Shown piece by piece: positions 1,902 through 47,456 of a stretch of DNA of 64,000 bases. Every line of letters starts with the position of its first letter. Position 1 is the first letter of the stretch. Under the pieces are notes generated by a model. The model worked only from the letters and a program-made list of their open reading frames with translations, was not told the DNA's origin and did no database searches. The translations under genes and the position numbers were made by a program. Source of the DNA: Alphaproteobacteria bacterium (GTDB lineage: Bacteria > Pseudomonadota > Alphaproteobacteria > SP197); contig CBDBNO010000012.1 in assembly GCA_965207785.1 (NCBI GenBank), positions 187,808 to 251,807 of the forward strand. Reading direction: 5' to 3'.

Positions 1902-2654
1902 TCATGCACCGCCCAGGGGCGGCGGCCGGTTGCGCTTGCGCTGGGATTCGCCGGTGATCTCGATGCGGTAGGCATTGTGGACGATGCGATCGAGGATGGC
2001 GTCGGCGATGGTGGGTTCGGCGATCACCCTGGGCCAGTGCTCCACGGGGATCTGACTGGCGATCAGCAGCGAGGCCCGGGCGTGGCGCTGCTCGACGATC
2101 TCGAGCAGGTCGCGGCGGCTCTCGGCGGAGAAGTTCTGCAGACCCCAGTCGTCGAGCAGCAGCAGCGAGACCCTGGCGAGCCGCCGCATGAGCCGGTAGT
2201 GCGTTCCCCTGTCGCGGGCGCGGGCGAGTTCGGAGACGAGTTCGGGCACGCGCCGGTAGAGCACGGATACCTTCTGGCGGCAGGCCTGATGAGCGAGGGC
2301 ACAGGCCAGGAAGGTCTTTCCGGATCCTGTTGGTCCGACGATGATCAGGTTGAAGGCCTGGCGGATCCAGTCGCCGGCGGCGAGTTCGGTCAGCGTGGTG
2401 CGCGTGATGCCGCGGCCGGCACGGCAGTCGACATCCTGGAGATCGGCGCGGATGCGCAGCTGGGCCTGGCGGAGGTGGCCGAGGTAGCTCTTGTGATCGC
2501 GGTACTGGACCTCGCGTTCGATCATCATGGCGAGGCGGTCGTCGAAGTCGAACTGATCGATGTCGGCGATGTCGCGCTGTTCCTCGAGGGCCTCGACCAT
2601 GCCGACGAAGCCGAGTTGCAGCAGGCGTTCGACATTGGGTTGACGCAGCGTCAT
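1902..2654 (-). CDS. istB: IS21-family helper ATPase IstB
   Basis: 250 aa with Walker A IIVGPTGSGKTFLACALA and Walker B LLLLDDWG. It overlaps the istA stop by 4 nt. Confidence 0.95.
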   Translation of the reverse strand: MTLRQPNVERLLQLGFVGMVEALEEQRDIADIDQFDFDDRLAMMIEREVQYRDHKSYLGHLRQAQLRIRADLQDVDCRAGRGITRTTLTELAAGDWIRQAFNLIIVGPTGSGKTFLACALAHQACRQKVSVLYRRVPELVSELARARDRGTHYRLMRRLARVSLLLLDDWGLQNFSAESRRDLLEIVEQRHARASLLIASQIPVEHWPRVIAEPTIADAILDRIVHNAYRIEITGESQRKRNRPPPLGGA

Positions 2655-4485: not shown

Positions 4486-5000
4486 AACGCGCCACCGATG
4501 AGCGGTCCACTGAGCGCGGAGGCCGTCCATGTCAGTGAAAGACATGCAACAACTCTGGGTACGAGTCGATCCGGGAAGAAGCGGTTCTGGGCGATGAAGA
4601 CCAGGGCGACCAACGCTCCGCCGCCGAGTCCCTGCACCGTGCGGCCTGCAAGCAGGACCGGCATCGCCGGCGCCGCCGCGCACGCGATGCATCCGAACGT
4701 GTAAAGCAGCGTCGAAGCCAGCATGGCACGGCGCAGCCCGGCCCGCGCCACGAAGGCGCTCGCCGCCGCTGCGGCCATGACCGAGCCCATCAGGTAAAGG
4801 GCAAATGCCCAGCTGATGAGGCGCAGACCGCCGATATCTCCGATCGCCTCCGGGAGGGTCGTCGCTGCCAGCAACGTGTTGGCCGCATGCAACCAGATCG
4901 CCAGGCACATCACGAGCAGCAGGGGCAGGTGCCGGCGCGCCACCACCTCGCGCCAGCTGACGGACTGCGGATCCGGACCCGGCCGCGCGTTCTCCTGCAT
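4486..5000 (-). pseudogene. MFS-type transporter gene, 5' fragment (TM1-TM5), interrupted by the IS21-family element
   Basis: Translation MQENARPGP...LLLVMCLAIWLHAANTLL... shows MFS motif A-like VARAGLRRAML and TM4 motif RTVQGLGGGAL. It is transcribed divergently from soxR. Confidence 0.7.
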
Positions 5001-5041
5001 GGCGATTCTCCCGTTGCGATGCGCCTGAAGGTGATGCTAGA

Positions 5042-5061
5042 ACTTCAAGTAAACTTGAAGT
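5042..5061. promoter_or_regulatory. SoxR box (8-4-8 palindrome ACTTCAAG-TAAA-CTTGAAGT) in the soxR/transporter divergent promoter
   Basis: This is a perfect inverted repeat in the 68-bp intergenic region. It resembles the canonical CCTCAAG-TTAA-CTTGAGG soxbox. Confidence 0.75.
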
Positions 5062-5068
5062 CAAGCCC

Positions 5069-5551
5069 ATGCAGACCACGCGTTGGCAGAAAACCAGCCT
5101 CTCGATCGGCGACGTCGCCCGACGCACGGGACTCGCCACGTCGGCGCTCCGCTTCTACGAGGAAATGGCGCTGATCGAGTCGCTGCGCACGCCGGGCAAT
5201 CAGAGGCGCTATGCGCGTGACGTGATTCGACGGGTTTCGTTCATCCGTGCCGCGCAACGGGTGGGCCTGACACTCGAGGAGGTGCGCGCAATGCTCGACG
5301 ACCTGCCCGCGGGCCGGTCCCCGACCCGCCGGGACTGGCAGGAGCTTGCAAGACGCTGGAAACCATGGCTCGACGAACGGATCGCCGCCCTCGAACGCTT
5401 GCGGGACCAGCTTTCGTCATGCATCGGTTGCGGCTGCCTGTCGCTCGACAGCTGTGCTCTCTACAACCGCGGTGATGCCGCCGGCCGCCTGGGCCCCGGT
5501 CCGCGTTACCTTCTGGGCGATTCTCCTGAGGATCTCCAGACCCGGAATTGA
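5069..5551 (+). CDS. soxR: Redox-sensitive MerR-family transcriptional activator SoxR
   Basis: It has a MerR HTH (IGDVARRTGLATSALRFYEE) and the C-terminal [2Fe-2S] cysteine motif CIGCGCLSLDSCALYN. Confidence 0.9.
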   Translation: MQTTRWQKTSLSIGDVARRTGLATSALRFYEEMALIESLRTPGNQRRYARDVIRRVSFIRAAQRVGLTLEEVRAMLDDLPAGRSPTRRDWQELARRWKPWLDERIAALERLRDQLSSCIGCGCLSLDSCALYNRGDAAGRLGPGPRYLLGDSPEDLQTRN

Positions 5552-5618
5552 GCGAAAAGTGCATGGTGGAGCCCGCGCCCTCACGGACGACTGTCGCTCT
5601 CATCCTGGTGAGACCGGC

Positions 5619-6008
5619 TCAGGGGTCGGGCGGAAGGAACGAGCTTTCGTCGCGCAGCGAACAGCGGTTTCCGTCCGGGTCGACGAAGTCGCCGACGGTT
5701 CCCCAGGTCTCCCGTCTGACGACGACGCGCACGCCGCGCGCCTCCAAAAGACGGGCGGCAGCATCGACATCGGCAACGTTGAACCTCAGCTTGACCGGGC
5801 TTTGCTCGATGGATCGCCCGCCCGGCATCGCCGTTCCGCCGGTTTCGACCATCAGGTAACTCCCGCCCATGTCCAGGCAGGTCAGCGTGGAATGCTCGTC
5901 ATCGAGCGAGAACATCTCCGGCAGTCCCAGAATCCGGCGGTAGAAGTCGACACACTCTTCGTACTGCTCGGTGAACACGATGACGCCGCTTCGCTTCAGG
6001 TCCATCAT
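5619..6008 (-). CDS. VOC-family protein (glyoxalase / bleomycin-resistance-like), 129 aa
   Basis: The single-domain VOC pattern (...CVDFYRRILGLPE...LRFNVADVDAAARLLEARGVRVV...GDFVDPDGNR...) is present. It lies in the lower-GC islet. Confidence 0.7.
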   Translation of the reverse strand: MMDLKRSGVIVFTEQYEECVDFYRRILGLPEMFSLDDEHSTLTCLDMGGSYLMVETGGTAMPGGRSIEQSPVKLRFNVADVDAAARLLEARGVRVVVRRETWGTVGDFVDPDGNRCSLRDESSFLPPDP

Positions 6009-6234
6009 GGACTTCTCCCTGTCCCCGCCTCCGCCACTCGCCCCTGATTCGTCCGGACGCGGTTGACGCCTCCTGCGTCCCTCAGACGCTCAAGGATCCT
6101 CATCTGCCATCACTGATCCACGACCGCGCCGTTCTGCCGCTGCCGTATGCGAGACTGGCATTCCCCGGCAGACACGGCCCAATTCGCCTCGGGGCGAAAC
6201 CAACTGCGTTTCACCGAAATGAGAAGTGAACGAC

Positions 6235-6636
6235 TCAAGATGGCCGATGGGATGCGGCGCGCCGGACGCGAAAGATCGAATGGGCAGTAGCGGTCCGTAG
6301 CGTGGATACACGTACCCGGCGATCTCGGTGGTGGAAAGTGAAGTCGTCGATGCATGCATGCGAAATGAATCCGCCGTCAATGTCCCCCGCCGTGCCGTCC
6401 CGCATCGCCTGGGACAGGAAACGGGCGATGCGCTGCGTAAGGCTTTGGTTGGTTCCGGTTCCCTCGCCGCCCAAAGGAAGTGTGCGGACAAGATTGTGAT
6501 TCGGATACTCCTCGGCAAAGCGTATGGCGATCTGATACGCAGACATGAACGGGCGGTCGAGAGGGTGATCGGCTTCGTACTCTGGACAGCTCGCCAGAAT
6601 CCGGCGCAGATGATCAATATTGAAGTCGCGTCTCAT
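6235..6636 (-). CDS. Hypothetical protein, about 105-133 aa, no recognisable family
   Basis: The ORF is MRRDFNIDHLRRILASCPEYEADHPLDRPFMSAYQIAIRFAEEYPNHNLVRTLPLGGEGTGTNQSLTQRIARFLSQAMRDGTAGDIDGGFISHACIDDFTFHH... The C-terminal roughly 30 codons are Arg-rich and may not be real. A competing frame (6090..6617) overlaps it. Confidence 0.4.
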   Translation of the reverse strand: MRRDFNIDHLRRILASCPEYEADHPLDRPFMSAYQIAIRFAEEYPNHNLVRTLPLGGEGTGTNQSLTQRIARFLSQAMRDGTAGDIDGGFISHACIDDFTFHHRDRRVRVSTLRTATAHSIFRVRRAASHRPS

Positions 6637-6698
6637 TGGGAGTCAGTCAAGGTTCCTGCGAGGGAGACGCAGTCTACCCGAACGTGTTCTTGAACCGA

Positions 6699-7451
6699 TC
6701 AACGAATAGCGTTCCGGCGACGAGAGCGCTTGCGGAATCTGCACTCCTCGCGGAGAAAGCACCTTCGGCAGTTCGGCTTCGTCTTCTTACAGGTGGACTT
6801 TCCCAAGCGAAAGAGCTGGGCGTCGAGCTTCCATGACCCCTGAGGCATCATCTCCCTTGCGATGTCGAGAGCGGCCTCTGCGGTGACCATGTTGCCGGTG
6901 AAGACGCGGCCCAACACTCTTCGCACATGGATGTCCGCCTTGAGTTCACCGACCCCTTCAATCTGCTTGGTGTCATAGAGTATCCCGGCGGTCATCCGGG
7001 AAATCTGCGGTCCTACCCCCATCCGTTCGAGTCGCTTCTGAGTCACGCACGAGGATTGGTTCGTCCAGATGTTGCGAGCATCACCGCCATATCGCTCTAC
7101 GATTTCCCTGCCGATTCTCTGGACGCGGGCATGTGCAGCAGGGAACCGGTGGAGGTTGTGGCGACGACGTACCGTCAGGGTGTTCCACCTGCGAATTCCA
7201 ACGATCTCATCCCACAGATCACGCGGATCACCAAGATCGTCCTCGGCAAAACGACGGGCATTTTCCCAAACCAGGCCGACCCTCATCTGATAGTCGAGGA
7301 TGCACCCGAGCAAGAACTTGTTGGCTGACCGCTTGTCCGCCCGGCGGCCATTCAGACGGGAGAGGAAACCTGTGTGCATGGGGGGCTGCCTGCGACGCTC
7401 TTTGCGAATCAGCTTGCGAACGCGCTTGCACTTGGGGCTGCTTGGTTTCAT
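6699..7451 (-). CDS. Endonuclease III-like HhH-GPD DNA glycosylase with a [4Fe-4S] cluster loop and a Lys/Arg-rich N-terminal tail
   Basis: The Fe-S cluster loop CKKTKPNCRRCFLREEC has C-x6-C-x2-C-x5-C spacing. The HhH region reads GVGPQISRMTAGIL, and the catalytic Asp is kept in ADIHVRRV. The N-terminal tail is MKPSSPKCKRVRKLIRKERRRQ. The start has a GAAGGAAG ribosome-binding site. Confidence 0.75.
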   Translation of the reverse strand: MKPSSPKCKRVRKLIRKERRRQPPMHTGFLSRLNGRRADKRSANKFLLGCILDYQMRVGLVWENARRFAEDDLGDPRDLWDEIVGIRRWNTLTVRRRHNLHRFPAAHARVQRIGREIVERYGGDARNIWTNQSSCVTQKRLERMGVGPQISRMTAGILYDTKQIEGVGELKADIHVRRVLGRVFTGNMVTAEAALDIAREMMPQGSWKLDAQLFRLGKSTCKKTKPNCRRCFLREECRFRKRSRRRNAIR

Positions 7452-7599
7452 GGTCACTTCCTTCAGTGTGGGCTGCGTGGCACTGCGACCCAAGATGCTG
7501 AGATCCTGGATGACTCACTGTGTAGAAATCTGGATATGGTAGGACGGGGGCGTTCGGGCATGCCAATTCGTCTGGGGGCTGGACGAGGCGTCCCTTCGC

Positions 7600-8058
7600 T
7601 CAGCGTCGCTGATATTCTCTGATCTTGCGGAAGGCCCCGGTCGTGGGGACACGATAGGCGAACCAGTCTGTCCTCATGACTTCGCGTTGTTCATCCCTGT
7701 AAGACTTGCCGTCCCTAACCAGGACGTGGTCGCCTGGGGCTCTTGTCTCCTGCCTGATCACAATGCTGTTCAGCGTCGGAAGACCGTTCACCCGGCAATA
7801 TTCTCCGACGATCCCCAACGGAATCCCCAAGGTGACTCCCGCCTTGGGATCCATTCCCATTCTTTTCGCGAGCTCACCGTAGGTGATGAGCACGTCTTTC
7901 CGTCGGCGAGGTGGCCGGGGTTCGTCTCGCCATTTCCATTCCTTCATGACGTGGGCCGTGAGGATCATCCAGACGCGTTGTGCCTGCACGTGCCGCCGGT
8001 CGCCGATACCAAACTCCTTAGCTTCAGGAACGGTGATGTCTCTCATTGTTTGAGCCAT
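7600..8058 (-). CDS. MGMT/Ogt-fold (alkyltransferase-like) winged-helix protein lacking the PCHR active-site motif, 152 aa
   Basis: ITYGELAKRMGMDPKAGVTLGIPLGIVGEYCRVNGLPTLNSIVIRQETRAPGDHVLVRDG aligns to the MGMT C-terminal domain (VSYGQLA...GAARAVGAA..NPISIVVPCHRV..G..GY). PCHRV is replaced by IRQET. The ribosome-binding site is GGAGAAAG. Confidence 0.55.
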   Translation of the reverse strand: MAQTMRDITVPEAKEFGIGDRRHVQAQRVWMILTAHVMKEWKWRDEPRPPRRRKDVLITYGELAKRMGMDPKAGVTLGIPLGIVGEYCRVNGLPTLNSIVIRQETRAPGDHVLVRDGKSYRDEQREVMRTDWFAYRVPTTGAFRKIREYQRR

Positions 8059-11973: not shown

Positions 11974-13362
11974 ATGACCGTCATCCCCAACTCTCCCCAC
12001 GCGCGCGATGCCGCAACCCTCATCCACCCCTATTCCAACCTGGTGGTGCACGAGAAGGAAGGTCCTCTCATCATCGAGAAGGGCAACGGCGTCCATGTCG
12101 AGGACCTCGAAGGCAACACCTACATCGAGGGACTCGCCGGCCTGTGGTGCACCTCGCTCGGTTTCAACAACGAACGGCTGGTGGAGGCAGCGGCGGCGCA
12201 GATGCGCAAGCTCCCCTACTACCACGCCTTCTTTCACCGCTCCTCAATGCCGTCCATCGAGCTGGCCGAACGCCTGATCGCCATGTCACCGGCGCCGATG
12301 GCGCGTGTCTGGTTCGCCAATTCCGGTTCCGAGGCCAACGACCATGCAGTGAAGTTCGTCTGGTACTACAACAACGCCCGCGGCAAGCCAGAAAAGAAAA
12401 AGATCATCGCCCGCCTCGGCGGCTATCACGGAATCTGCGTGTCGTCGGGCAGCCTCACCGGCATTCCGCTGATGCACCAGGGCTTCGATCTGCCGATCGC
12501 CAACATCATGCACACCGGGTCACCACACTGGTACCACGAAGGCCTGGAGGGTGAATCGGAAGAGGACTTCGCGACCCGAAGGGCCGAGGAACTCGAGCAG
12601 ATGATCCTTGCCGAGGGACCCGAGACCGTAGCCGCCTTCATCGCCGAGCCCGTCATGGGTGCTGGCGGCGTCATCGTGCCGCCCGCCGGCTACTTCGAGA
12701 AGATCCAGGCCGTCCTGGCGAAGTACGACGTGCTGATGATCGCCGACGAGGTGATCTGCGGATTCCACCGCACCGGCCAGCTGTTCGGTTCCAACACCTA
12801 CGGCATCAAGCCCGACATCATGGTCGTGGCCAAGCAGCTCTCCTCGGCCTACCTGCCGATCAGTGCGGTGATCATCAACGAGAAGGTCTATGGACCGATT
12901 CGCGACTTCTCCGACGACAACGGCGTGTTTGCGACAGGTTTCACCTATTCGGGCCATCCCGTTCCGGCAGCGGTCGCCGTGGAGACCCTGAAGATCTACG
13001 ACGAAATCAACATTGCCGATCATGTCGCCAGGATCGCGCCGGTGATGCAGGAGCGACTCATGGCTCTCGCCGATCATCCGATCGTCGGCGAAGCCAGAGG
13101 CGTTGGTCTCATCGGAGCGGTGGAGCTCGTCAGGGACAAGGGGACCCGGGAGAACTTCCCGCCGGCCATCGCCAACTACTGTGGCGAACGGTGCCTTGCG
13201 CATCGCCTCATCGTGAGGGCGGCCGGGGGGAACTCCGTCGCGGTCTGTCCTCCCCTCATCATCGAGGAAGAGCAGATTCACCAGATCTTCGATCGCCTGA
13301 AAGCGGCACTCGACGACACCCTGGACCACGTCCGCCAGGAGAGCCTGCTCGACGCAGCCTGA
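11974..13362 (+). CDS. Class III (omega) aminotransferase, PLP-dependent
   Basis: 462 aa. The aspartate aminotransferase family class III pattern is present (...AEPVMGAGGVIVPP..., ADEVICGFHRTGQLFG, VAKQLSSAYLPISAV). Confidence 0.85.
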   Translation: MTVIPNSPHARDAATLIHPYSNLVVHEKEGPLIIEKGNGVHVEDLEGNTYIEGLAGLWCTSLGFNNERLVEAAAAQMRKLPYYHAFFHRSSMPSIELAERLIAMSPAPMARVWFANSGSEANDHAVKFVWYYNNARGKPEKKKIIARLGGYHGICVSSGSLTGIPLMHQGFDLPIANIMHTGSPHWYHEGLEGESEEDFATRRAEELEQMILAEGPETVAAFIAEPVMGAGGVIVPPAGYFEKIQAVLAKYDVLMIADEVICGFHRTGQLFGSNTYGIKPDIMVVAKQLSSAYLPISAVIINEKVYGPIRDFSDDNGVFATGFTYSGHPVPAAVAVETLKIYDEINIADHVARIAPVMQERLMALADHPIVGEARGVGLIGAVELVRDKGTRENFPPAIANYCGERCLAHRLIVRAAGGNSVAVCPPLIIEEEQIHQIFDRLKAALDDTLDHVRQESLLDAA

Positions 13363-36972: not shown

Positions 36973-38226
36973 ATGGCGATCCCCCTAGTGATGAATGCTC
37001 CCGAGGCGCCGGCCCGCAGCTTGTTGTTCCTGGCGTGCCGCGTCTTCCTTCCCTTCGCAGCGGGTTACTTCCTCTCCTATCTCTTCCGGACCGTGAACGC
37101 CGTTCTCGGACCGGTTCTCGGCGAGGAACTGGCCCTGGATGCCGCTGCCATCGGCCTGATGACAAGTGCCTTCTTCCTCGCCTTTGCCGGCATCCAGATT
37201 CCTCTCGGCATGGCGCTCGACAGGTTCGGACCCAGGCGCACGCATGCGGTGCTGCTTGTCATCGCCGCCGCGGGTGCGGTCCTGTTCAGCCAGGGTGACG
37301 GCACCCTCGTCCTCACCCTGGCGCGCGCCATCATCGGCCTCGGCATGGCCGGGGGCCTTCTGGCCGCCATGAAGATGTTTGCACTGTGGTTTCCCGGGCA
37401 AAAGCTGCCCCTGGTCAACGGCCTGGTCCTGGCCGCGGGCGGGGCTGGAGCCATGGCCGCATCCGCTCCGGTTCACGCCATGATCGATCTCATCGGCTGG
37501 CGGCATCTGTTTGTCGTACTCGCTGCCGTGACCCTGCTGGTGGCGGTGGTCATCCACGTCGTCGTACCGGAGCGACGGGTGGCAGGCACTCCGGTAACAC
37601 TGACGGACCAGTTGAAGGGGCTCCGGCTCATCCAGCGTTCGCCGGCCTTCCGGGCTGTCGCGCCGCTGGTGATGACGACCCAGGCGGCGTGGCTGTCGAC
37701 CCAGGCGCTGTGGTTCGGACCATGGCTGCGCGACATGGCCGGCCTCGACGCCGGCCACGCGGCCCAGGCCCTCTTCATCGGCGGCCTGGCCATGATCGCC
37801 GGGTATGCCTTCCTCGGCTGGCTTGCCGAACGGCTGAGCCGCATCGGAATCCCGATCTCCCTCGTCGCGGCCCCGGTCACTTTGGTGTTCATTGCGGTAC
37901 AGGCGATGCTGGCGCTGGGCAGCAGTCTGCCTGCATGGGTGCTGACCGCGGCGTTCTCCGCGACCGGGGGCGCGGTCATCATCTACTATGCCGACATGAC
38001 CCAGAGGTTCCCGCCGGCCATGGCCGGCAGGGTCAATACCACGCTCGCCCTCTACACATTCGCCCTTGGCGGCGCTCTCCAGATCCTTGTCGGTCTCGTC
38101 CTCAATCTCTTCCCGGCGCCCGAGGGCGGCTATGCGCCTTCAGGCTACCTTGCCGCCTTCGGCGGCTGGGTCCTGGTCCAGCTCGCCTGCTTTGCCTGGT
38201 ACCTCGCCCGCCGGCGTCACTGCTGA
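36973..38226 (+). CDS. MFS transporter
   Basis: 12 predicted TM helices, with MFS motif A (LDRFGPRRT) and a second-half repeat. Confidence 0.8.
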   Translation: MAIPLVMNAPEAPARSLLFLACRVFLPFAAGYFLSYLFRTVNAVLGPVLGEELALDAAAIGLMTSAFFLAFAGIQIPLGMALDRFGPRRTHAVLLVIAAAGAVLFSQGDGTLVLTLARAIIGLGMAGGLLAAMKMFALWFPGQKLPLVNGLVLAAGGAGAMAASAPVHAMIDLIGWRHLFVVLAAVTLLVAVVIHVVVPERRVAGTPVTLTDQLKGLRLIQRSPAFRAVAPLVMTTQAAWLSTQALWFGPWLRDMAGLDAGHAAQALFIGGLAMIAGYAFLGWLAERLSRIGIPISLVAAPVTLVFIAVQAMLALGSSLPAWVLTAAFSATGGAVIIYYADMTQRFPPAMAGRVNTTLALYTFALGGALQILVGLVLNLFPAPEGGYAPSGYLAAFGGWVLVQLACFAWYLARRRHC

Positions 38227-38400
38227 CGCCGGACCCAGACCCCGTACTCCAGCAGGCGGCTGTGGAACAGCGCCTCACCCCAGAGCGAACCGGAAGTCTG
38301 GCGTCCGCAGGTCACCGGTGGCGCCGGCTCTCGTCGAGATCGGCCAGAATTTCGTCGGGCGTGGCGACGGGCGCGGGCTTGAGCGGCGACCCCGAGGTGG
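38217..38400 (-). pseudogene. Remnant of a phd/yefM-vapC toxin-antitoxin module (antitoxin C-terminus plus first about 25 codons of the PIN toxin)
   Basis: ...PAPVATPDEILADLDESRRHR followed by ...WGEALFHSRLLEYGVWV is co-linear with the 3' end of the antitoxin at 45140..45433 and the 5' end of the vapC at 45143. The DNA is about 75-80% identical by eye. The antitoxin N-terminus and most of the toxin are missing. Confidence 0.6.
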
Positions 38401-38442
38401 CCAGCGTCGGCGCGCCGGGTACTGGAAGCGGAGCGCCTTGGT

Positions 38443-39111
38443 TCAGGCAGTCTTGACGTTGTCCGGATGGGCGGCCGCAAAGTCTGGCAATCCTTTGCAA
38501 TACTCATTGATTCTTCGAATGTTCGGCCACGCCGCGACGTCGAGTTCCCAGCGCTCCGCGTTGTAGACCTGCGGAACCAAACAGCAATCCGCCAGACCCG
38601 GCGTGTCGGCGTTGCAGCTTCGTCCCGATCGCGGGTCATTCAGCAACGCCTCGACTGCGTCCAGTCCGCGACGCATGAAATGCTGCATCCACGCAATCCT
38701 TGTCGCGTCATCGCCATCACAGACCGTCTGCAGATGATTGACGACGTGCAGATTGCAGATCGGATGAATGTCCATCGCGATGGCATAGGCGATGGTTCTG
38801 ATGCGGGCCCGATCCGCAGGGGCGCTCGGGAGCAAGGGCATGCCTGGCCGCGTTTCATCCAGGTACTCCAATGCGGCCAATGACTGGGTGAATCGCTGTC
38901 CGTCGATGACGAGGACCGGCACGAAGCCCTGAGGATTGCGTTCGATATGGTCGGCGTTTCTGTGAGCTCCGGTTCTCAGGTCAACGTCAAGACTCGTACT
39001 CTCGATGCCCTTCAGTCGCAGGCCAATCCGCAATCGATAACTGGCCGAAGAACGCCAGTAATCGTAGAGCACGGCCTGCGTTGGCGGACCCTCGGCCACG
39101 CTGCCGCTCAT
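38443..39111 (-). CDS. maiA: Maleylacetoacetate isomerase (GST zeta class)
   Basis: It has the N-terminal GST fold LYDYWRSSASYRLRIGLRLKGI and the zeta-class motif. fahA lies in the same cluster. Confidence 0.85.
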   Translation of the reverse strand: MSGSVAEGPPTQAVLYDYWRSSASYRLRIGLRLKGIESTSLDVDLRTGAHRNADHIERNPQGFVPVLVIDGQRFTQSLAALEYLDETRPGMPLLPSAPADRARIRTIAYAIAMDIHPICNLHVVNHLQTVCDGDDATRIAWMQHFMRRGLDAVEALLNDPRSGRSCNADTPGLADCCLVPQVYNAERWELDVAAWPNIRRINEYCKGLPDFAAAHPDNVKTA

Positions 39112-39650
39112 GCGCCCGAGAGCTGCGATTCATGCAGCCATTCGGCGTGTTTCGGCGCGCGCTTTGTCCTCGACCATTCCTCGAGCATGTCCCACTTCAC
39201 CGCGTCGAGGCGCTTCAGCTTCTCGTCTTCATCCGGGTCCGGGCAGGCAAGTTCCAATCGATGACCGTTGGGATCGAAGAAGTAGATCGAGTGAAAGATC
39301 GAATGATCCGTTACACCGAGGACATTGACACCGTTTGCTTCCAGCCGCGCACGGTACGCGAGCAGCGTTTCGCGATCCCTGACCCTGAAGGCGATGTGCT
39401 GGACCCATTCGGGCGTGTTCGGATCCTTCTCCATTTCGGGTTTGGTCGGCAGTTCGAAGAACGCCAGAATGTTGCCGTTTCCCGCATCCAGGAAGATGTG
39501 CATGTAGGGATCGGGTTCGCCGGTCGATGGCACACGGTCTTCGGCAATCGCCAGCACGAAGTCCATGCCGAGGTTGTCGCGATACCACTCGACCGTCTCC
39601 TTGGCGTCCCTGCACCGGTAAGCGACATGATGAATTCGGTCGATGTTCAT
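39108..39650 (-). CDS. VOC-family (glyoxalase / extradiol dioxygenase-like) protein
   Basis: A two-module VOC fold is present (HHVAYRCRDAKETVEWY...HIAFRVRD...). Confidence 0.7.
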   Translation of the reverse strand: MNIDRIHHVAYRCRDAKETVEWYRDNLGMDFVLAIAEDRVPSTGEPDPYMHIFLDAGNGNILAFFELPTKPEMEKDPNTPEWVQHIAFRVRDRETLLAYRARLEANGVNVLGVTDHSIFHSIYFFDPNGHRLELACPDPDEDEKLKRLDAVKWDMLEEWSRTKRAPKHAEWLHESQLSGA

Positions 39651-39886
39651 GAGGATTTCCTTTCCGATGCTGCTTCTTTGGCCTTGTGCCCCGAACCGGC
39701 CGCAACCGAAAGTTCGAACGCCTGGCGCAAAACGGATCGATCACCTATGTGGTTGGCCAGTATGAGAACGAGCCTGGCGTTCAATGCGTCGCTTTCGTCG
39801 TCGCTTCGACCCTCGTGAAGCTCCAGAAGTTCGGCATAGAAGCCGTCCGGGTCGTCGATGTTCGGTTCGACAATCAGGGAGTTCAC
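39647..39886 (-). CDS. DUF2783-like small protein (79 aa)
   Basis: A short acidic ORF that overlaps the VOC gene start by 4 nt. The family assignment is tentative. Confidence 0.4.
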   Translation of the reverse strand: MNSLIVEPNIDDPDGFYAELLELHEGRSDDESDALNARLVLILANHIGDRSVLRQAFELSVAAGSGHKAKEAASERKSS

Positions 39887-39904
39887 CGTCTTGATCCTTC
39901 CCGC

Positions 39905-41539
39905 TCAGTTCTCAAGTTTTCCGACTGCCCGGCGGACGGCACGGGTTACGATGGCCGCATCGAAACTCGGCCACCGTGCAGCGACATGCTGGTCCGGCCT
40001 CATCAGATAACAGGCGGTCCGTTCAGCGCCCAGGTATCGCCGGCCCAGGTGGCTGTCGGCGTCGCATCGCAGAGCAACGAACTCGACAGGAATGCGATCC
40101 ACGACAAGGTTCCCGACGGGGCTTTCCAGATTGAACAAGACGACCTGGAACCGACCGCCCAGGCGGTCCAGCAACCATCCGTCGGAAATGGGGGCGTCGA
40201 CGGCCGGGGCCCCGGGACGCGTATGGTCCGGGAACACATCGGCGTCCAGGGTGTTCAGGGGCGAACCGTCGTACACTGCCGGAACCGAAAGTCGTCCCGA
40301 GTTCACGAGCGGTCGCGCGAACGTTGCGATCTCCGACAAGTCGAGAACCGCGTCGCGAAACAGGCGGCTGACACGTGACTTGGGCGTTATGAAGTCGGAC
40401 GAGCGCGATGAATTGAGGATGTTCTCATCGGCCGCATGAATGCGTTCGATGTCGTACGTCTCCAGGAGCGACTCGGGCGCCAAATCGTCAATGACCAGTT
40501 TCAACTTCCAGATCAGGTTGTCCGTGTCCTGAAGGCCGCTGTTGGCGCCGCGCGCCCCGAAGGGCGATACCTGGTGTGCCGCATCACCGCAAAAGATAAC
40601 GCGCCCGTGGCGGAACTTCTCCATGCGGCGGCACTGGAACGTATAGATCGACGTCCATTCCAGATCGAACACCACATCGTCGCCCAGCATGGATTTCAGG
40701 CGCGGAATGACGTTTTCCGGCCTCTTTTCCCTTTCCTTGTCGACATCCCAACCGAGTTGAAGGTCAATCCGCCACAGATTGTCCGGTTGCTTGTGCAGCA
40801 ACGCCGACTGGTTGCGGTTGAATGGCGGATCGAACCAGAACCATCGTTCCGTGGGAAACTCCGCCGCCATGACCACGTCGGCGATCAGGAAATTGTCCTC
40901 GAACACGCGTCCGACGAAATCCAGTCCCAACATTGATCGGACGGGCGAATTGGCACCATCGCAAGCCAAGACCCAATCGGCGCAAAGGCGGTATGGACCC
41001 TCGGGCGTCTCAACCGTGAGGTCTACACCGTCCCCGTCCAGTTCAACCGCCGTCACACGGTTTCCGCCGCGTATCTCGATGGACAGGCCATCCGACGCCA
41101 AGACCTCGCAGTGTTCGACCAGATACTGCTCGAAGTAGTACTGCTGAAGATTGATGAATGCCGGGCGGCGATGGCCGTCCTCGGGTAGAAGATCGAACTG
41201 GTACACCCTGCGTTCGTTGAAAAAGACCTTACCCCTGTTCCAGACGACACCCTTGTCGACAAATCGGTCGCCGCATCCGAGGCGGTCCAGGATCTCCAAC
41301 AGTCTCTTTGCGAAACAGATCGCCCGCGATCCGTAACTGACCTTGTCGGCGTCGTCCAGGACCAGGACAGGCACTCCATGCTGCGCCAGATCGACGGCCG
41401 CCGCCAACCCGACCGGACCCGCGCCGATGACGATGACCTCGTGGCGGACAGGCGCCTCGGAATCCTGGTCCGGTGCGCGCCGATACGAATACAGCGGCGT
41501 TTCGAAGATCCGAGGTTCCGGGCATTGCGCTGCGATCAT
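39905..41539 (-). CDS. FAD-dependent aromatic-ring monooxygenase (MhpA/PheA-type hydroxylase)
   Basis: The FAD fold VIVIGAGPVGL, the DG motif CDGANSPVR and FCGDAAHQVSPFGARGANSGLQD are present. The start is taken at MIAAQCPEPRIF. Confidence 0.8.
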   Translation of the reverse strand: MIAAQCPEPRIFETPLYSYRRAPDQDSEAPVRHEVIVIGAGPVGLAAAVDLAQHGVPVLVLDDADKVSYGSRAICFAKRLLEILDRLGCGDRFVDKGVVWNRGKVFFNERRVYQFDLLPEDGHRRPAFINLQQYYFEQYLVEHCEVLASDGLSIEIRGGNRVTAVELDGDGVDLTVETPEGPYRLCADWVLACDGANSPVRSMLGLDFVGRVFEDNFLIADVVMAAEFPTERWFWFDPPFNRNQSALLHKQPDNLWRIDLQLGWDVDKEREKRPENVIPRLKSMLGDDVVFDLEWTSIYTFQCRRMEKFRHGRVIFCGDAAHQVSPFGARGANSGLQDTDNLIWKLKLVIDDLAPESLLETYDIERIHAADENILNSSRSSDFITPKSRVSRLFRDAVLDLSEIATFARPLVNSGRLSVPAVYDGSPLNTLDADVFPDHTRPGAPAVDAPISDGWLLDRLGGRFQVVLFNLESPVGNLVVDRIPVEFVALRCDADSHLGRRYLGAERTACYLMRPDQHVAARWPSFDAAIVTRAVRRAVGKLEN

Positions 41540-41555
41540 GGTCACGTCCGCCGAC

Positions 41556-42506
41556 TCAATCTTGCAGCGCCTTCCACATTTCACGGTCCCGTTTGGCCGT
41601 CCAGATACGCGGCGTGTCGATTCCCATCGCCTCGTCGTAGGCTCGGGCCACGTTGAACGGCAAACAGTGTTCGTAGATTGCAAAGCTCTCGAACTTCGGA
41701 TCACAGACTTCGCGGCACGCCGCCATGGCGTCCTTGAGCGGCCGGCCGGCCGCTGCCGCAGCAGCGACCGGACGATAGGTGCTGGCGACAAAATCCCGAG
41801 TCAGCGCAACGGCTTCCCTGACTTGATCGGGTGTTCTCAGCGCGTCGCCGCGCCCCGGTGCCAGCGCCCTCGGAGCGAATGCTCCGATCTTGTCCAATGT
41901 AACGGGCCAGTCGTGAAAGTGACCGTCGCCGCAGTAGCACGCCGAATGGAATTCAACCTGATCGCCGGAGAACATGACGCTGGAGTCGGGAACCCAGGCG
42001 ACAATGTCGCCGGCAGTGTGGGCCCGCCCGAGGTGCATGAGGTCAACGCGCCGCTTGCCGAGATAAACGGTCATCGAATTGCGGAACGTCATGGTTGGCC
42101 ATGTCAGTCCCGGAATGCTTCCCGCGTTTTCGAACAGACGGGGAAACCGTTCATACTCGCTGTCCCAGTCTTCCTGTCCTCTTTCGTGGATCATCGCGCG
42201 ACACATGTCCGAGGCGATCACCTGTTCGGCCCCGTAAGCGGATGCGCCGAGAACCCGCACGGCGTGGTAGTGGCTCAAGACGACGTACTTGACGGGCTTG
42301 TCCGTGACGCCTCGGATCCGCTCGATGACCTGCTGCGCCATGACGGGCGTTGCCTGGGTATCGATGACCATGACGCCGTCGTCGCCGACGATGACGCCGG
42401 TGTTCGGATCGCCCTCGGCTGTGAAGGCATAGAGATCGGGTCCGACCTCGGTGAACGAGATCGTTTTTTCTTCAGTATCGCCGGTCGATGCGAAGGAATT
42501 GGACAT
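41556..42506 (-). CDS. MBL-fold metallo-hydrolase
   Basis: The HxHxDH-type motif LSHYHAVRV, ...HTAGD... and the C-terminal His are present. Confidence 0.7.
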   Translation of the reverse strand: MSNSFASTGDTEEKTISFTEVGPDLYAFTAEGDPNTGVIVGDDGVMVIDTQATPVMAQQVIERIRGVTDKPVKYVVLSHYHAVRVLGASAYGAEQVIASDMCRAMIHERGQEDWDSEYERFPRLFENAGSIPGLTWPTMTFRNSMTVYLGKRRVDLMHLGRAHTAGDIVAWVPDSSVMFSGDQVEFHSACYCGDGHFHDWPVTLDKIGAFAPRALAPGRGDALRTPDQVREAVALTRDFVASTYRPVAAAAAAGRPLKDAMAACREVCDPKFESFAIYEHCLPFNVARAYDEAMGIDTPRIWTAKRDREMWKALQD

Positions 42507-42527
42507 GCGTGTGAACTCCAGCTCTGG

Positions 42528-43805
42528 TCAGGTCCAGGTACGGGCCGGATGGGCGGGCAGTACGGTCCCGCTGCACTCGCCGAACCCGATGCGATAGCCA
42601 TCACCCTGCGCCCAGCCGGTCATCACCACCGTGTCGCCATCCTCAAGGAACGTGCGGGTCTCACCGGTCTTCAGGATGAGTGGGGTCTTGCCGCCCCAGG
42701 CGATCTCGAGAAGAGAGCCGAACTGATCGCGCTCGGGGCCGGAAATCGTTCCAGATCCCAGGAGATCACCGGTTCGCATGCGGCACCCACCGTTGGCATG
42801 ATGGGCCAACTGCTGGGCGGAGGAGTAATACATGTGCCGGTAGTTGGTGCGACAGATCGTGGTCGCGGCGTGAGCGTTCTCCGGCTGAAGATCGACCTGG
42901 AGTTCAATGTCGTACAGCGATGGCGCCGACTCGACCAGATAAGGCAGCAGCGCGACTTCGCGTTCGGGCGCCGGCGTGCGAAACGGTTCCAGCGCCGCCG
43001 CCGTCACGACCCACGGACTGATGGACGTCGCGAACGCCTTCGACTGAAATGGGCCGAGCGGTTGGTACTCCCAGGCTTGAATGTCTCGCGCCGACCAGTC
43101 GTTGAGCAGCACGTAACCAAATATCATCTCATCGGCTTCGGTAACGCTGACCTGCTCACCCAAGGCACTGGACAGTCCAACGACAGCCCCGATCTCGAGC
43201 TCGATGTCGAGACGGCGGCTCGGGTGGTAGACGGGGGCGTCAGCGTCCGGCGATTTCAGCTGCCCCCAGGGTCGGCGGATGCCTGTTCCGCTGACAACGA
43301 CGGTGGAGGACCGTCCGTTGTATCCGATCGGAATGTGCAGCCAGTTCGGCGGCAGGGCATTTTCAGCTCCCCGAAACATGGTCCCAACGTTGAAGGCATG
43401 CTGCCGTCCGGCATAGAAATCAGTGTATTCGGACACGTTGAACGGCAGACGCGGCGTGACGTTCGCCATCGAAAGCAGCGCAGCGTCGCGCAGACGCGAA
43501 TCGTCGCGCAGGCGCCGCTCCTCGCCATCCACGGACAAGAGATCGGTCAACTGTTCCCGGACAGAACGCCAAGACTGCGTGCCGCATGCCATGAAGGCAT
43601 TCAGCGATGCCCCTTCGAACACCGGCCTATCCGCATCGACGTCGATGAGGCCTTCCTGCTCCAGCAAGCGCAGGTCGAGCGCACAATCACCAATGGCAAC
43701 AGCGCAGCGCGGGTCACCATCAGTTGCGGAGACGACCCCGTAGGGGAGATTCTCCAGCGGGAAACCGCAGCCTTCCGAATTCGCACTGCCGAGCCAACTG
43801 TCCAT
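42528..43805 (-). CDS. fahA: Fumarylacetoacetase
   Basis: It has the FAH N-terminal domain (ENLPYGVV) and the catalytic region (IFGYVLLNDWSARDIQAWEYQPLGPF). It sits in the homogentisate-pathway context with maiA. Confidence 0.9.
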   Translation of the reverse strand: MDSWLGSANSEGCGFPLENLPYGVVSATDGDPRCAVAIGDCALDLRLLEQEGLIDVDADRPVFEGASLNAFMACGTQSWRSVREQLTDLLSVDGEERRLRDDSRLRDAALLSMANVTPRLPFNVSEYTDFYAGRQHAFNVGTMFRGAENALPPNWLHIPIGYNGRSSTVVVSGTGIRRPWGQLKSPDADAPVYHPSRRLDIELEIGAVVGLSSALGEQVSVTEADEMIFGYVLLNDWSARDIQAWEYQPLGPFQSKAFATSISPWVVTAAALEPFRTPAPEREVALLPYLVESAPSLYDIELQVDLQPENAHAATTICRTNYRHMYYSSAQQLAHHANGGCRMRTGDLLGSGTISGPERDQFGSLLEIAWGGKTPLILKTGETRTFLEDGDTVVMTGWAQGDGYRIGFGECSGTVLPAHPARTWT

Positions 43806-43847
43806 ATCGCGGGATCCTCCTGGCTTCGCGGGTGACCGAAACCGAAC

Positions 43848-44513
43848 TCAATCGGCCAAGACTGCCGGAAGCGGCACGTCGAGCGCGGTGACCACGGCCC
43901 AGGGAATCGTATCGGCCTGGTTCCGGTCGAGAAGCAATGCTGGCGACACGATGACGTTGTCGGCATTGATCCTGGCCGGGACCCCCTGCCCATGGAACGG
44001 GTCGTAGACGCGGCGCATTTCCGGCGTTGTTTCCGGTTTCCTGGTTTCGCGGCTGAAGACCGGCTCGATGGCCAGTATCAGACCGCGCCCTCCAATGTCC
44101 CCGACCCGGGGGCTGGTCGTTTTCAACGCCTCCAACACGCGCATGAGGTGATCACCGACCTGCCTGACGTTCCAGGCCACGTTCAACCGCATGGCTTCAT
44201 TCATTGCGACCAGGATCGCCGCGGCTCCGACAAGGCGGCCCGAGCAGGTGTAGCCATGCCCGATCAAACCGTCAACATCGCACGCAGCTTCGAACGCCCC
44301 CGCGACCTTGGCGGAGATCGTCGCCGCACCGAACGGGACGTAACCGTTCGTGATCGCCCTGGCGGTGCACATCATGTGCGACCGAACTCCAGACAAACGC
44401 GCACCCGTCCAGGCGCCAGTTCGCCCAAGGGCGGTCATGACGTCATCCGTGATCGGCAGAACGCCGCGCCGCGAACAGGGGAATCGCCGGGAATTGGAGT
44501 GTTTCACGCGCAT
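43848..44513 (-). pseudogene. Truncated class III aminotransferase (C-terminal about 200 codons only)
   Basis: PITDDVMTALGRTGAWTG...GYVPFGAATIS...HGYTCSG... corresponds to residues about 250-450 of an omega-aminotransferase. No N-terminal half lies upstream; the hbd-3' copy and vapC follow instead. Confidence 0.7.
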
Positions 44514-44617
44514 GGCAGGACCGTCGTCCTGATCCGTACCGGGCAGCGGGTCTCTCGAGCGGACAAGCCGTGACGACGCTTATCGTTCCTCAAGGTCCAC
44601 TTCACGCGACGTGCAAC

Positions 44618-44717
44618 CGGGGTTTCGCCTGAGTCGTCGTGGAAGCCACGGCCGCTCCTGCGACCGAACCAGCCCGCCTCGACATCCTTGGCGAGCAATG
44701 GACACGGACGGTACTTC
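44618..44717. repeat. About 100-bp imperfect duplicate of the hbd 3' end (second copy at 45621..45720)
   Basis: cggggtttcgcctga...gacat[c/a]cttggcgagca[a/g][t/g]ggacacgg[a/g]cggtactt. It would encode ...LAKDVEAGWFGRRSGRGFHDDSGETP, compared with the Hbd C-terminus [26 protein letters not shown]. Confidence 0.8.
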
Positions 44718-44731
44718 TCGCGGGCCGCCGA

Positions 44732-45143
44732 TCAGGCGGTTCGGGACACTTCCAGGTCGAACAGCAGAATATCCATCGCGCGGGCGACAGCGTTCTTCCG
44801 CCGGTCGTAGCTCGCGAGCATGACTCCCTGGCCCTGTTCGGCCAGATACGAACACGACGCCAGATGCAGGGCGTCGAGGGTGCGCACCGCAGCGGGGGCG
44901 GGAAAGGCATCCAGCGCCCGCGCCATCACCGACGCAGACAGTTCCAGCATCGCTACACGGCGCGGTCAGCCAGCGTGCTGCCTCGCCATAAACATCCGCC
45001 AGCCCGCGCGCATGCAGCCGGGCCCAGATCTCGTACTCCAGCAGGCGGCTGGAAAGCAGGGTCTCTTCCCAGAGCCAGCCGGGGGGCTGGCGGTCCTCGG
45101 CGAGAAGATGCGCGAGCGCGACGGACGTGTCGATGTAGATCAC
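44732..45143 (-). pseudogene. vapC: PIN-domain toxin VapC, interrupted by a single frameshift
   Basis: The N-terminal frame reads MIYIDTSVALAHLLAEDRQP...GEAARWL. The C-terminal part, in a +1 frame, reads MLELSASVMARALDAFPAPAAVRTLDALHLASCSYLAEQGQGVMLASYDRR... The two frames switch near 44950-44965. Confidence 0.7.
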
Positions 45144-45433
45144 CGATCGCGCCGGCTCTCGTCCAGATCGGCCAGCACTTCGTCGAGCGTGGCTACGGGT
45201 GGGGGTTTGGGCGGCGGACCCGAAGCGGCCAGCCTCGGCGGCGTCAGCACGCCGGACCGCACCGCCTCGGCCAAAAGGGCGTCGGCGACAATCGGGCTCC
45301 GGGTTTCCCGCAGCGGGCCGAGTTCCGCCACGACCCGATCGCGATCAGTCACGAGAATGGTTTCGCCGGAGGCAGCCAGCCGGACGTACTCGCTCAGCTT
45401 GCTGTTCAGAACCTTGATACCCACCGATCGCAT
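45140..45433 (-). CDS. Phd/YefM-family type II antitoxin
   Basis: 97 aa: MRSVGIKVLNSKLSEYVRLAASGETILVTDRDRVVAELGPL... It overlaps the vapC start by 4 nt. Confidence 0.8.
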   Translation of the reverse strand: MRSVGIKVLNSKLSEYVRLAASGETILVTDRDRVVAELGPLRETRSPIVADALLAEAVRSGVLTPPRLAASGPPPKPPPVATLDEVLADLDESRRDR

Positions 45434-45605
45434 GTGAGCAAGGTAGCGACGGATGGCTACTTCGCCAGCCACGCGGGCCGACCGATCGCGGACGTTGCAA
45501 CAGGAAGGACAGCGACTCATTCGCATCCTCGTCCGGCAGCACCCATGCGGTTGCCGTCGGGCGAAGTGCATGATCGGCGCCAGCGAACCTGGACACCGAT
45601 GAGTA

Positions 45606-46481
45606 CTATCTCGTCGGGATCGGGGTTTCGCCTGAATAGTCGTAGAAGCCGCGGCCGGACTTGCGGCCGAGCCAGCCGGCCTCGACATACTTGGCGAGCA
45701 GGGGACACGGGCGGTACTTGGTGTCCGCGAGGCCGTCATAGAGCACCTGCATGACGGAATAGCAGACATCGAGGCCGATGAAGTCGGCGAGTTCGAGCGG
45801 GCCCATGGGATGGTTGGCGCCGAGCCGCATCGCCGTATCGATGGAGTCGACGGTGCCGACGCCTTCGTAGAGGGCGTAGACCGCTTCATTGATCATCGGC
45901 AGCAGGATGCGGTTGACGATGAAGGCCGGGAAATCTTCGGCGTTGGCCGGCACCTTGCCGAGTTCCAGCGTCAGCTCGCGGATGGTATCGAAGGTCTCGC
46001 CGTCGGTGGCCAGTCCGCGGATCAGCTCCACCAGGTTCATCATCGGCACCGGGTTCATGAAGTGCATGCCCATGAACTTCTCCGGCCGGTCGGTGGCCGC
46101 CGCGAGACGCGTGATGGGAATCGACGACGTGTTGGTGCAGATGATGGCGTCCGCCTTGAGGGACGCTGTCAGTTCGGCAAGAATCTCCTTCTTGACCTTC
46201 TCGTTCTCGCTAGCAGCCTCGATGACGCAGTCGCAGTCAGCCAGTCCGGCATAGGAGTCGACCACGGCAATGCGGCCGAGCGCGGCATCCATCTGTTCCT
46301 GATCGATGACACCACGCCGCCGCTGACGCTCCATGTTGGAGCGCACCACCTCGACGCCGGCTTCCGCGAGATCCCGCGACATGTCGATAACCAGGATGTC
46401 GTATCCCGCCAGGGCGCAGACGTGGGCGATTCCCGACCCCATCTGACCGGCGCCGATCACGCCAATGCTCCTGATCTCCAT
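45606..46481 (-). CDS. hbd: 3-hydroxybutyryl-CoA dehydrogenase
   Basis: The NAD fold [14 protein letters not shown], the 3HCDH signature region and the C-terminal domain are present. Confidence 0.9.
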
Positions 46482-46502
46482 GCCCAATAGCCTATCTCCC
46501 GG

Positions 46503-47456
46503 TCACCGCGGCTGGATGCCTCTCTCTTCCAACTCGGCCTTCAGTTCGGGAACGGCATCGAAGAGGTCCGCAACCAGACCGAAATCGGCCACCTGGAAGA
46601 TCGGCGCCTCCTCGTCCTTGTTGATGCAGGCGATGACCTTGCTGTCCTTCATGCCGGCCAGATGCTGGATGGCGCCCGAGATGCCGACGGCAAGATAGAG
46701 TTCCGGCGCCACCACCTTTCCGGTCTGTCCCACCTGGTAGTCGTTGGGCACGTAGCCGGCATCGACAGCGGCCCGGCTGGCGCCGACGGCCGCTCCGAGA
46801 ATGTCCGCCACCTCCTCGAGCATGGCGAAGTTGTCACCGGATTTCATGCCACGGCCGCCTGAAATGACCACGCGGGCCGTGGTCAGTTCCGGGCGTTCGC
46901 TGCCGGAAAGCGCGGCGCCCTCGAAGCTGGAGAGACCGGCATCGGCCGCACCCGCCACCGCCTCGACGGGAACCGCCGTGTCGCTCTCCTCGGCGGCGTC
47001 AAAGGCCGTCGTGCGAACCGTGACAAACACGATGTCGTCGGTCGACTGGACGGTGGCCATGGCGTTTCCGGCGTAGATCGGGCGCACGAAGGTATCGGCA
47101 GCGACCACCTCGGTGATGTCCGAGACCTGCTGCTTGTCGAGAAGCGCTGCGGCCCGCGGCATGATGTTCTTGCCGGTGGTAGTGGCCGGCGCCACGACAT
47201 GGCTGTAGTCCGGCGCCAGCCCGACGATGAGCGGGGCAACGTTCTCGGCGAGCTGCGCCTCGAGCGGCGCCTCGTCGGCAAGAAGAACCCGGGCAATGCC
47301 GGCCAAACGGGAAGCGGTTTCAGCCACCGCACCGCAGCCGCTGCCCGCCACCAGAACGGTGATGTCGCCGCCCATTTCCCGGGCGGCCGTCACGGCACTC
47401 CCGGTGGCCGCCGCAAGTTCCTGATTGTCGTGTTCCGCATAGACCAGTATCGCCAT
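46503..47456 (-). CDS. etfA: Electron transfer flavoprotein alpha subunit
   Basis: It has the EtfA FAD-binding C-terminal domain ([35 protein letters not shown]). Confidence 0.9.

Follow-up and report, generated by a model that had tools for sequence, protein, structure and literature searches.

Stacking of new gene modules beside a conserved anchor, with an illegitimate junction at the other end and displaced remnants, has been proposed for effector–immunity arrays of the Vibrio cholerae type VI secretion system (T6SS; PMC5361080); related background comes from homology-facilitated illegitimate recombination (HFIR) in Escherichia coli (PMC3240628) and, as far as it is cited in PMC5361080, from Rhs C-terminal displacement. 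Here we analyse a locus that resembles these arrays and also carries toxin–antitoxin (TA) modules. It lies in a 64,000-nt stretch of the alphaproteobacterial assembly GCA_965207785.1 (contig CBDBNO010000012.1, positions 187,808 to 251,807; hereafter the window), between hbd, which encodes 3-hydroxybutyryl-CoA dehydrogenase, and a gene for a major facilitator superfamily (MFS) transporter. Within this slot, two copies of a phd–vapC module flank a cluster of genes for aromatic catabolism. Our favoured reading, held with moderate confidence, is that recombination events stacked in a variable slot, one prone to recombination in this uncultured lineage, and that the two TA copies came to flank the cluster by separate events.

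The two copies are homologous and point the same way. A blastn comparison of 37900-38700 with 44300-46600 returned one significant same-strand alignment (E=2e-28, ~81% identity), which joins 38228-38412 to 45017-45240. The homology runs over ~185 nt and is not confined to some 30 bp; a repeat search resolved it into two ungapped blocks, one of 104 nt (84% identical) and one of 76 nt (79%). The MFS-side copy is a stub, in which a 39-nt gap spans the antitoxin stop and the toxin start. Its translation gives ~34 codons of the antitoxin C terminus, ending in APVATPDEILADLDESRRHR and a stop, and then ~25 codons from the N-terminal region of the toxin. In the hbd-side copy, both genes are on the minus strand, and phd lies upstream of vapC and shares 4 nt (GTGA) with it. 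An antitoxin upstream, a 4-nt overlap and a PIN-domain toxin are the features that this module, as predicted from sequence, shares with chromosomal type II VapBC/Phd–PIN modules. The initial annotation had described two homologous phd–vapC copies in the same direction, of which one is a stub and the other has a dead toxin, and both the alignment and the translations bear this out, except that the stub extends over 38228-38412 and not 38217-38400. Its account of the anatomy likewise stands, with one omission, a 99-nt fragment of the hbd 3' end (B, below).

Three-frame translation splits the hbd-side toxin gene, vapC1, over two frames, and comparison with an intact 136-aa homologue in L180 places a +1 nt insertion at ~44961-44962. 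The frameshift is real and not a sequencing error, because the same insertion is present in two other assemblies, L081 and L083; vapC1 is, as predicted from its reading frames, a truly dead toxin gene with a single recent lesion. Once repaired, it matches the Pfam PIN domain at 35 bits (cut-off 23.6). PF01850 is also present in intact 136-aa VapC homologues up to 89% identical to vapC1, and the VapC motifs IYIDTS, LLEYE, LDALH and SYD are visible, with the conserved acidic residues of PIN domains. The antitoxin phd1 matches Pfam PhdYeFM_antitox (E=1.1e-5) with 25.5 bits, under the cut-off of 29.8, and had no match in NCBIfam. Identical-protein look-ups with phd1, with hbd from an ATG start and with P0127 returned no record.

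We identified close relatives by exact-protein look-ups and through hbd homologues; all are metagenome assemblies, referred to here by L numbers. Hbd of the outgroup L178 is 86% identical, and the closer group shows 93-95% identity in DNA. The hbd homologues are 96-98% identical in the sister lineages, the gene order etfB-etfA-hbd is kept across relatives, and the MFS gene adjoins argH in every close relative and in the outgroup L178. Divergence between sister lineages is 5-7% in flanking genes and rises to ~15% at neutral sites (D+AT'). Between hbd and MFS we recovered seven structural haplotypes, written here with U for the spacer after hbd, B for a displaced hbd 3' end, D for the sequence that directly follows the hbd stop in L179 and L175, and AT' for an aminotransferase pseudogene. 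Haplotype a (L178) is hbd-glucosaminidase-MFS; b (L175-L177) is hbd-D-DUF6429-vapC2 remnant-MFS; c (L173/L174) is hbd-U-phd2 (nonsense at codon 2)-vapC2 remnant-MFS; d (L179) is hbd-D-AT'-cluster-phd2 (intact, 97 aa)-vapC2-MFS; e (the window and L083) is hbd-U-phd1-vapC1-B-D-AT'-cluster-type-2 stub-MFS; f (L082+L081) adds to haplotype e an island of ~19.3 kb, set between hbd and an hbd fragment of ~270 nt that has decayed; and g (L180) is phd1-vapC1 (intact)-B-LysR/M19/BCCT/Ldh_2-MFS. Variation of the locus among relatives, which the initial annotation had expected, is seen, with the cluster absent from L173/L174 and L175-L177.

These haplotypes separate the two TA copies. Alignments group the stub with copy 2 of L081 and the TA of L173, L175 and L179 (type 2), and the hbd-side copy of the window with L180, at 91% identity (type 1). 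In four related lineages, type 2 directly adjoins the stop codon of MFS. In L179 the cluster and AT' sit directly upstream of type 2, as in the window, and type 1 is missing; L180 has type 1 with an intact toxin beside unrelated cargo, and no cluster; and type 2 occurs with no cluster in L173 and L175. From this distribution it follows that the two copies are not the termini of a single unit. In L173, L175 and L179, vapC2 shares deletions of 8 nt and 6 nt and a 3' truncation at the MFS stop, and in L173 and L179, where that region survives, the catalytic codons ATC GAC ACG (I-D-T) have become GTC GTC GCG. The remnants in these three lineages are ~150 nt longer than that of the window and have the same MFS junction. 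Since the inactivating lesions are common to L173, L175 and L179, we read the type-2 toxin gene as having died before the sister lineages split from their common ancestor.

Alternatively, the cluster might have been acquired together with both TA copies as a single unit: an island stabilised by addiction, or a structure that arose when the TA module was duplicated locally in tandem. That the repeats point the same way and that the cluster is low in GC (60.8% against 64.9% for the window) is in keeping with this, but we regard it as extremely unlikely given the separate distribution of the two types in L179, L180, L173 and L175 and the early death of the type-2 toxin. Distances in phd rule out an in-place tandem duplication: type 1 differs from type 2 by 12-15%, members of type 2 differ among themselves by 9-11%, and type 1 differs by 15% from the homologue on an unrelated contig, L085, so that its distance to type 2 is roughly equal to that to an unrelated-contig sequence. 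Counted at third codon positions, the differences number 19-23 between type 1 and type 2 and 33 between type 1 and L085. The copies are thus distinct members of a single family and may be alleles that diverged in related lineages. The repeats, at ~81% identity, are not near-identical, and the unit they bound is not gained or lost whole, as a repeat-bounded mobile unit would be. The proposal that the cluster arrived with, or was stabilised by, the TA modules is not supported by these comparisons: type 2 stands beside MFS with and without the cluster, L179 has the cluster without an hbd-side copy, and the copy in L180 accompanies other cargo. Because the arrivals were separate, the bracketing by TA copies is best understood as a by-product of stacking and not as a TA-bounded element or a signature of addiction.

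Displaced copies of the hbd 3' end mark the junctions. B starts 15 nt after the vapC1 stop codon, and type 1 forms a self-contained 1.0-kb module that consists of the hbd 3' end, U, phd1 and vapC1, with B at its distal edge. The junction between TA1 and B (vapC stop, TCRGCGRCCCGCGAG, hbd codon 255) is identical in the window and in L180, where B runs for 114 nt to a TAG stop, and both B copies carry a derived TAT>GAT change. The shared junction and the shared change argue that the type-1 module with its displaced hbd end arose once and later faced different cargo. Past the GAT, B of the window matches hbd of L179 at 3 sites that differ in B of L180 (GTCGAGGCGGG against ATCGAGGCAGG; GAAACCCCG against GAAGACCCG) and then runs into D. 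Such a mosaic, with its run into D, is what would be expected from a crossover inside B at the cargo swap. D and AT' are orthologous to the region downstream of hbd in L179, which aligns with the window from 44579 onwards; positions 10932-10975 of L175 match window 44611-44568 at 86%. B has 12 changed codons, of which 5 are nonsynonymous, against 7/42 nonsynonymous between real hbd orthologues. Dating by the decay of B (12/99 nt differ from hbd of L179) relative to the neutral divergence of D and AT' (15%) proved too imprecise for ordering the events.

A second displaced fragment lies beside the island of haplotype f. We observed this ~19.3-kb island in a 32x sister strain (L082 12603-20750, L081 1-3751; ctg853914 ~2,232,846-2,252,123), with genes for LysR, ABC transporters, a DruA-domain protein, an IS110-family transposase, an ASCH protein and an epimerase; the 9x strain of the same sample (ERZ25069412) does not have it. 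The ~270-nt fragment next to the island is 88% identical to hbd, with indels, although the 32x strain differs from the window by only ~1%. This discrepancy suggests that the structural haplotypes are old and were moved between strains by recombination in the flanks. The two displaced fragments start at different hbd codons, ~255 for B (99-114 nt) and ~200 for the ~270-nt fragment.

The duplicated gene ends raise the question of site-specific integration. Phage 21 and e14 insert at the 3' end of icd by means of an integrase and a fixed core site, and the gene end is duplicated; the insert supplies a new 3' end and the original end stays as a downstream pseudo-fragment, which resembles the hbd case. 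The hbd 3' end could accordingly be the attachment site of integrase-driven islands, with the TA modules as leftovers of tandem islands, and direct repeats of this end do flank inserted DNA twice, as B after TA1 and as the ~270-nt fragment after the island. We consider this very unlikely. The two hbd fragments have different start points, hence no common crossover site, and their difference in length argues against one site-specific attachment site. No integrase or transposase family was found among the Pfam matches of the proteins in the MFS-to-hbd interval (36.8-46.5 kb), and the covered part of the island (~12 kb) likewise gave no integrase. The 12% divergence of the ~270-nt fragment, against a strain difference of ~1%, further indicates that the island haplotype is old and was probably exchanged by homologous recombination in the flanks.

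Because the hbd fragments do not share a starting codon and the sequence covered shows no recombinase gene, we favour anchored recombination. DNA entering from related genomes would recombine at the conserved hbd 3' end, possibly also at the 5' end of the TA module, and the second junction would be illegitimate or based on short homology, as in HFIR or sequential displacement. Stacking of this kind would leave displaced hbd 3' fragments downstream. The pieces not under selection have since eroded, through the +1 frameshift in vapC1 and through deletions flanked by microhomology. The locus has the parts that sequential displacement leaves: a conserved anchor, stacked modules, displaced remnants and lineage-specific cargo behind hbd. 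As in the V. cholerae T6SS arrays and HFIR, new modules sit beside an upstream anchor that is conserved (here the hbd 3' end), and what was there before ends up further downstream as non-functional remnants (here B and the ~270-nt fragment). The protective partners are orphaned, as in those arrays (here an intact phd with a dead or missing vapC), and again no integrase is seen. The locus differs from the T6SS arrays in that its anchor is a housekeeping metabolic gene outside the toxin system and its cargo includes a catabolic operon.

Several points weigh against this account. We infer the mechanism from the structure of the locus only. Metagenome contigs could hold chimeric joins, although several arrangements recur in independent samples (L173/L174; L175-L177). 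The haplotypes do not fix the order and direction of events, and L173 can be read as ancestral or as recombinant. U of the window resembles U of L173 (89%) more closely than it does the 60 nt that precede phd1 in L180. This mismatch implies that at least one exchange broke at the TA module's 5' edge, and the TA sequence itself possibly has a role in exchange. No integrase occurs in the ~12 kb of the island seen, and the ~7.4 kb outside the sequence seen (ctg853914 ~2,240,993-2,248,373) could hold one. A further reading treats the very widespread and highly conserved Phd/VapC family as portable homology, in which a resident copy, even a dead one, would anchor incoming DNA that brings another family member. 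Cargo such as a catabolic operon might then be taken up or cut out in register where the TA begins at its 5' edge; footprints of this would be the junction in L173 and the differing histories of U and the TA body. We think this reading unlikely.

The initial annotation had also proposed that directly repeated TA sequences could drive deletion or amplification of the cluster. In such a scheme copies 1 and 2 would pair in register and cross over, the cluster would be lost or gained (Campbell-style), and L173/L174 would be the deletion product. The structure of L173 is suggestive: cutting out of the window everything between the starts of copies 1 and 2 would give it exactly. The U of L173 matches the flank of copy 1 at 150/168 positions, its phd–vapC has type-2 characters (35 sites shared with copy 2 only and 22 with copy 1 only, plus the type-2 indels), and the switch lies in register within a shared GCTACCTTG at the 5' edge of the repeat. 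The nearness of the window U to U of L173, although TA1 resembles the TA of L180, points the same way, as does the repeat of L081, which still measures ~430 nt with a longest exact run of 27 nt. Against this, the crossover would fall in a 9-nt window at the edge of homology and not in longer identical runs, the repeat in the window is down to 185 nt at ~81% with a longest exact run of 20 nt, and no other recombinant junction was found. The type-2 copies of L179 and L081 also group together (an 11-nt upstream deletion and GACATCACGG) with L173 outside, which fits an ancestral L173 and a single later gain of the cluster.

On balance this reading is a tentative one, and repeat-mediated loss of the cluster is possible but unproven. 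The repeats of the window, like the hbd/B pair (longest exact run 15 nt), are predicted to be poor recombination substrates. L173 can be explained in two ways. Its structure may have come from an exchange at the TA's 5' edge, by deletion, integration or allelic replacement, or it may be ancestral, with U-TA1 and U-TA2 as diverged alleles. We also considered V, the sequence upstream of copy 2 in L081, as a decayed U and rejected this, because a local alignment score of 14 is not significant against 12.2 +/- 2.1 for shuffled sequences; by eye, only ~17 nt beside the shared GCTACCTTG (GGTCGACGAAGT) look related.

The catabolic cluster has a distribution of its own. Pfam and NCBIfam matches uphold the gene content named in the initial annotation: maiA, a VOC protein, DUF2783, a monooxygenase, a metallo-beta-lactamase-fold (MBL) hydrolase, fahA and a truncated aminotransferase. 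GC content at third codon positions (GC3) is 0.64-0.74 in the cluster and 0.78-0.85 in neighbouring core genes, and these values, together with the low overall GC content, are consistent with a foreign origin of the cluster. A metagenome scan with the cluster proteins, using the monooxygenase as query, yielded 80 loci (L093-L172). The MBL gene adjoins the monooxygenase gene in most of these, DUF2783 follows the monooxygenase in nearly all, and the three occur as MBL-monooxygenase-DUF2783 in most, with fumarylacetoacetase (FAH), VOC and maiA added in subsets. Several loci, such as L095 and L128, have the full order FAH-MBL-monooxygenase-DUF2783-VOC-maiA. VOC homologues near the monooxygenase are 61-79% identical, in the same order in about a dozen of the loci. 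None of the 80 has phd or vapC, and the cluster thus occurs widely as a module that is usually not accompanied by this TA, a further point against joint arrival.

Nor does any of the 80 loci have an aminotransferase beside FAH, and AT' is not part of the conserved cluster. It is truncated likewise in L179 and L081, and its 84.7% identity to L179 looks like neutral divergence. We note a second class-III aminotransferase-like region at window 12718-13152, 31% identical to AT' over 146 aa. The closest described pathway is the lower homogentisate pathway (HmgA-MaiA/HmgC-FahA/HmgB), which the cluster resembles in that its FahA and MaiA pass NCBIfam equivalog cut-offs. It differs in its set of PRK08132 monooxygenase, DUF2783, VOC and MBL proteins and in HmgA: no homogentisate dioxygenase family is among the Pfam and NCBIfam matches of the genes at 38.4-43.8 kb, the related loci having been screened with the window's cluster proteins alone. 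In L179, fumarylacetoacetase is called as two open reading frames of 182 and 243 aa (2490-3766), which suggests a frameshifted fahA, and the cluster may be decaying in that lineage.

The antitoxin belongs to a large family. We found 5664 homologues, the best 120 of which are 82-94% identical although they span several bacterial phyla and some of which are named Phd/YefM antitoxin by their sources; for the toxin, 7897 of 8000 scored candidates pass the threshold. Hosts of the phd/vapC family include Rhodospirillales, Rhodobacteraceae, Chloroflexi, Gammaproteobacteria and other metagenome-assembled genomes. Neither the TA DNA nor the Phd protein has a match in PLSDB (72,556 plasmids). A 97-aa antitoxin family that scores below the Pfam Phd cut-off, with no NCBIfam model and no PLSDB relative, sets these modules apart from described type II modules. 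Type II modules are also known to decay to orphan antitoxins, and the dead toxin with a retained antitoxin seen here has counterparts on unrelated contigs, where an intact antitoxin is followed by a PIN toxin cut to ~36 codons (L084 6001-6400) or to ~10 codons (L085-L092; phd at about 6160-6450 in L085). From these remnants, loss of the toxin with the antitoxin kept recurs in the family. In L085-L089, phd lies near genes for a VOC protein and a FAD monooxygenase; we dismissed this as a link between TA and cluster, since these genes are only ~26% identical to those of the window and their proximity is a coincidence. Outgroup L178 has another insertion nearby that combines a TA with a mobile element: at 4560-8024, between the genes for cob(I)alamin adenosyltransferase and etfB, it holds a PIN-domain gene, a small upstream open reading frame and a gene with DruA and Tn5-dimerisation domains.

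Erosion in the slot can be followed lesion by lesion. Relative to L081, which keeps a near-full-length phd2, the window has a 324-nt deletion between GGCGCGCC and GGCGTGCC. A 65-nt deletion across the stop codon of B lies between ACCCCG repeats and a ~150-nt deletion in vapC2 between TCCGGC repeats; the 39-nt deletion from the phd2 stop to the vapC2 start has no clear flanking microhomology. The gene phd2 is intact in L179, carries a nonsense codon in L173 and a frameshift in L081, has lost most of its length in the window and is missing from L175.

The features of the slot are collected in Table 1. A scan for promoters and terminators over 38.1-45.8 kb gave nothing exceeding shuffled expectation. 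For deep synteny, the only level on which it is informative, we scanned species-representative genomes with hbd and obtained 80 listed matches, all at <=71% identity; argH lies 0.7-4 kb after hbd in 35 of these 80 distant alphaproteobacterial loci, and TA, cluster and MFS occur in the hbd-argH space of none of the 35.

Table 1 Features of the hbd-to-MFS slot, in window coordinates, from the hbd border to the MFS border.
Feature	Coordinates	Strand	Evidence and remarks
hbd (3-hydroxybutyryl-CoA dehydrogenase)	45606..46481	-	Pfam 3HCDH_N + 3HCDH; core gene, 3' end anchors the slot
U spacer, 172 nt	45434..45605	-	hbd stop to phd1 start; 150/168 identical to L173
phd1, 97-aa Phd/YefM-like antitoxin, intact, type 1	45140..45433	-	Pfam PhdYeFM_antitox, below cut-off
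vapC1, PIN-domain toxin pseudogene, type 1	44732..45143	-	Full length save one +1 nt insertion
B, displaced, decayed last ~33 hbd codons	44618..44716	-	86% identical to 45621-45719
D, sequence directly after the hbd stop in L179 and L175	44514..44617	-	Alignments to both
AT', 5'-truncated class-III aminotransferase pseudogene	43848..44513	-	Pfam Aminotran_3, positions 220-395 of 403
fahA (fumarylacetoacetase)	42528..43805	-	TIGR01266, 557 bits (cut-off 375)
MBL-fold hydrolase	41556..42506	-	Pfam Lactamase_B
FAD-dependent aromatic-ring monooxygenase, PRK08132 subfamily	39905..41539	-	NF006002, 788 bits; Pfam FAD_binding_3
DUF2783 protein	39647..39886	-	Pfam DUF2783, 94 bits
VOC (glyoxalase/dioxygenase superfamily) protein	39108..39650	-	Pfam Glyoxalase
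maiA (maleylacetoacetate isomerase)	38443..39111	-	TIGR01262, 253 bits (cut-off 171)
phd2 remnant, last ~34 codons of the type-2 antitoxin	38306..38412	-	84% identical to 45137-45240
vapC2 remnant, ~25 codons of the toxin N-terminal region	38228..38303	-	79% identical to 45017-45092; abuts the MFS stop
MFS transporter gene	36973..38226	+	Pfam MFS_1; convergent with hbd, distal border of the slot

The locus is an ordinary, well-documented kind of variable slot, of which it provides a new and well-resolved example, and it leaves the current understanding of TA biology and gene transfer unchanged. Its value lies in an unusually complete natural series, seven haplotypes in which an operon, TA modules and an island are stacked behind a housekeeping gene. 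The stepwise decay of the TA modules is visible in this series, from intact copies (L180; phd2 in L179) through frameshift or nonsense mutations and microhomology deletions to a 185-nt stub. Two gaps in current resources also become apparent, a very large Phd-like antitoxin family that is missed by curated models and a conserved aromatic cluster linked to FAH and MaiA whose substrate appears uncharacterised. For annotation, the locus advises caution: cargo with TA copies on both sides is not necessarily a mobile or an addicted unit.

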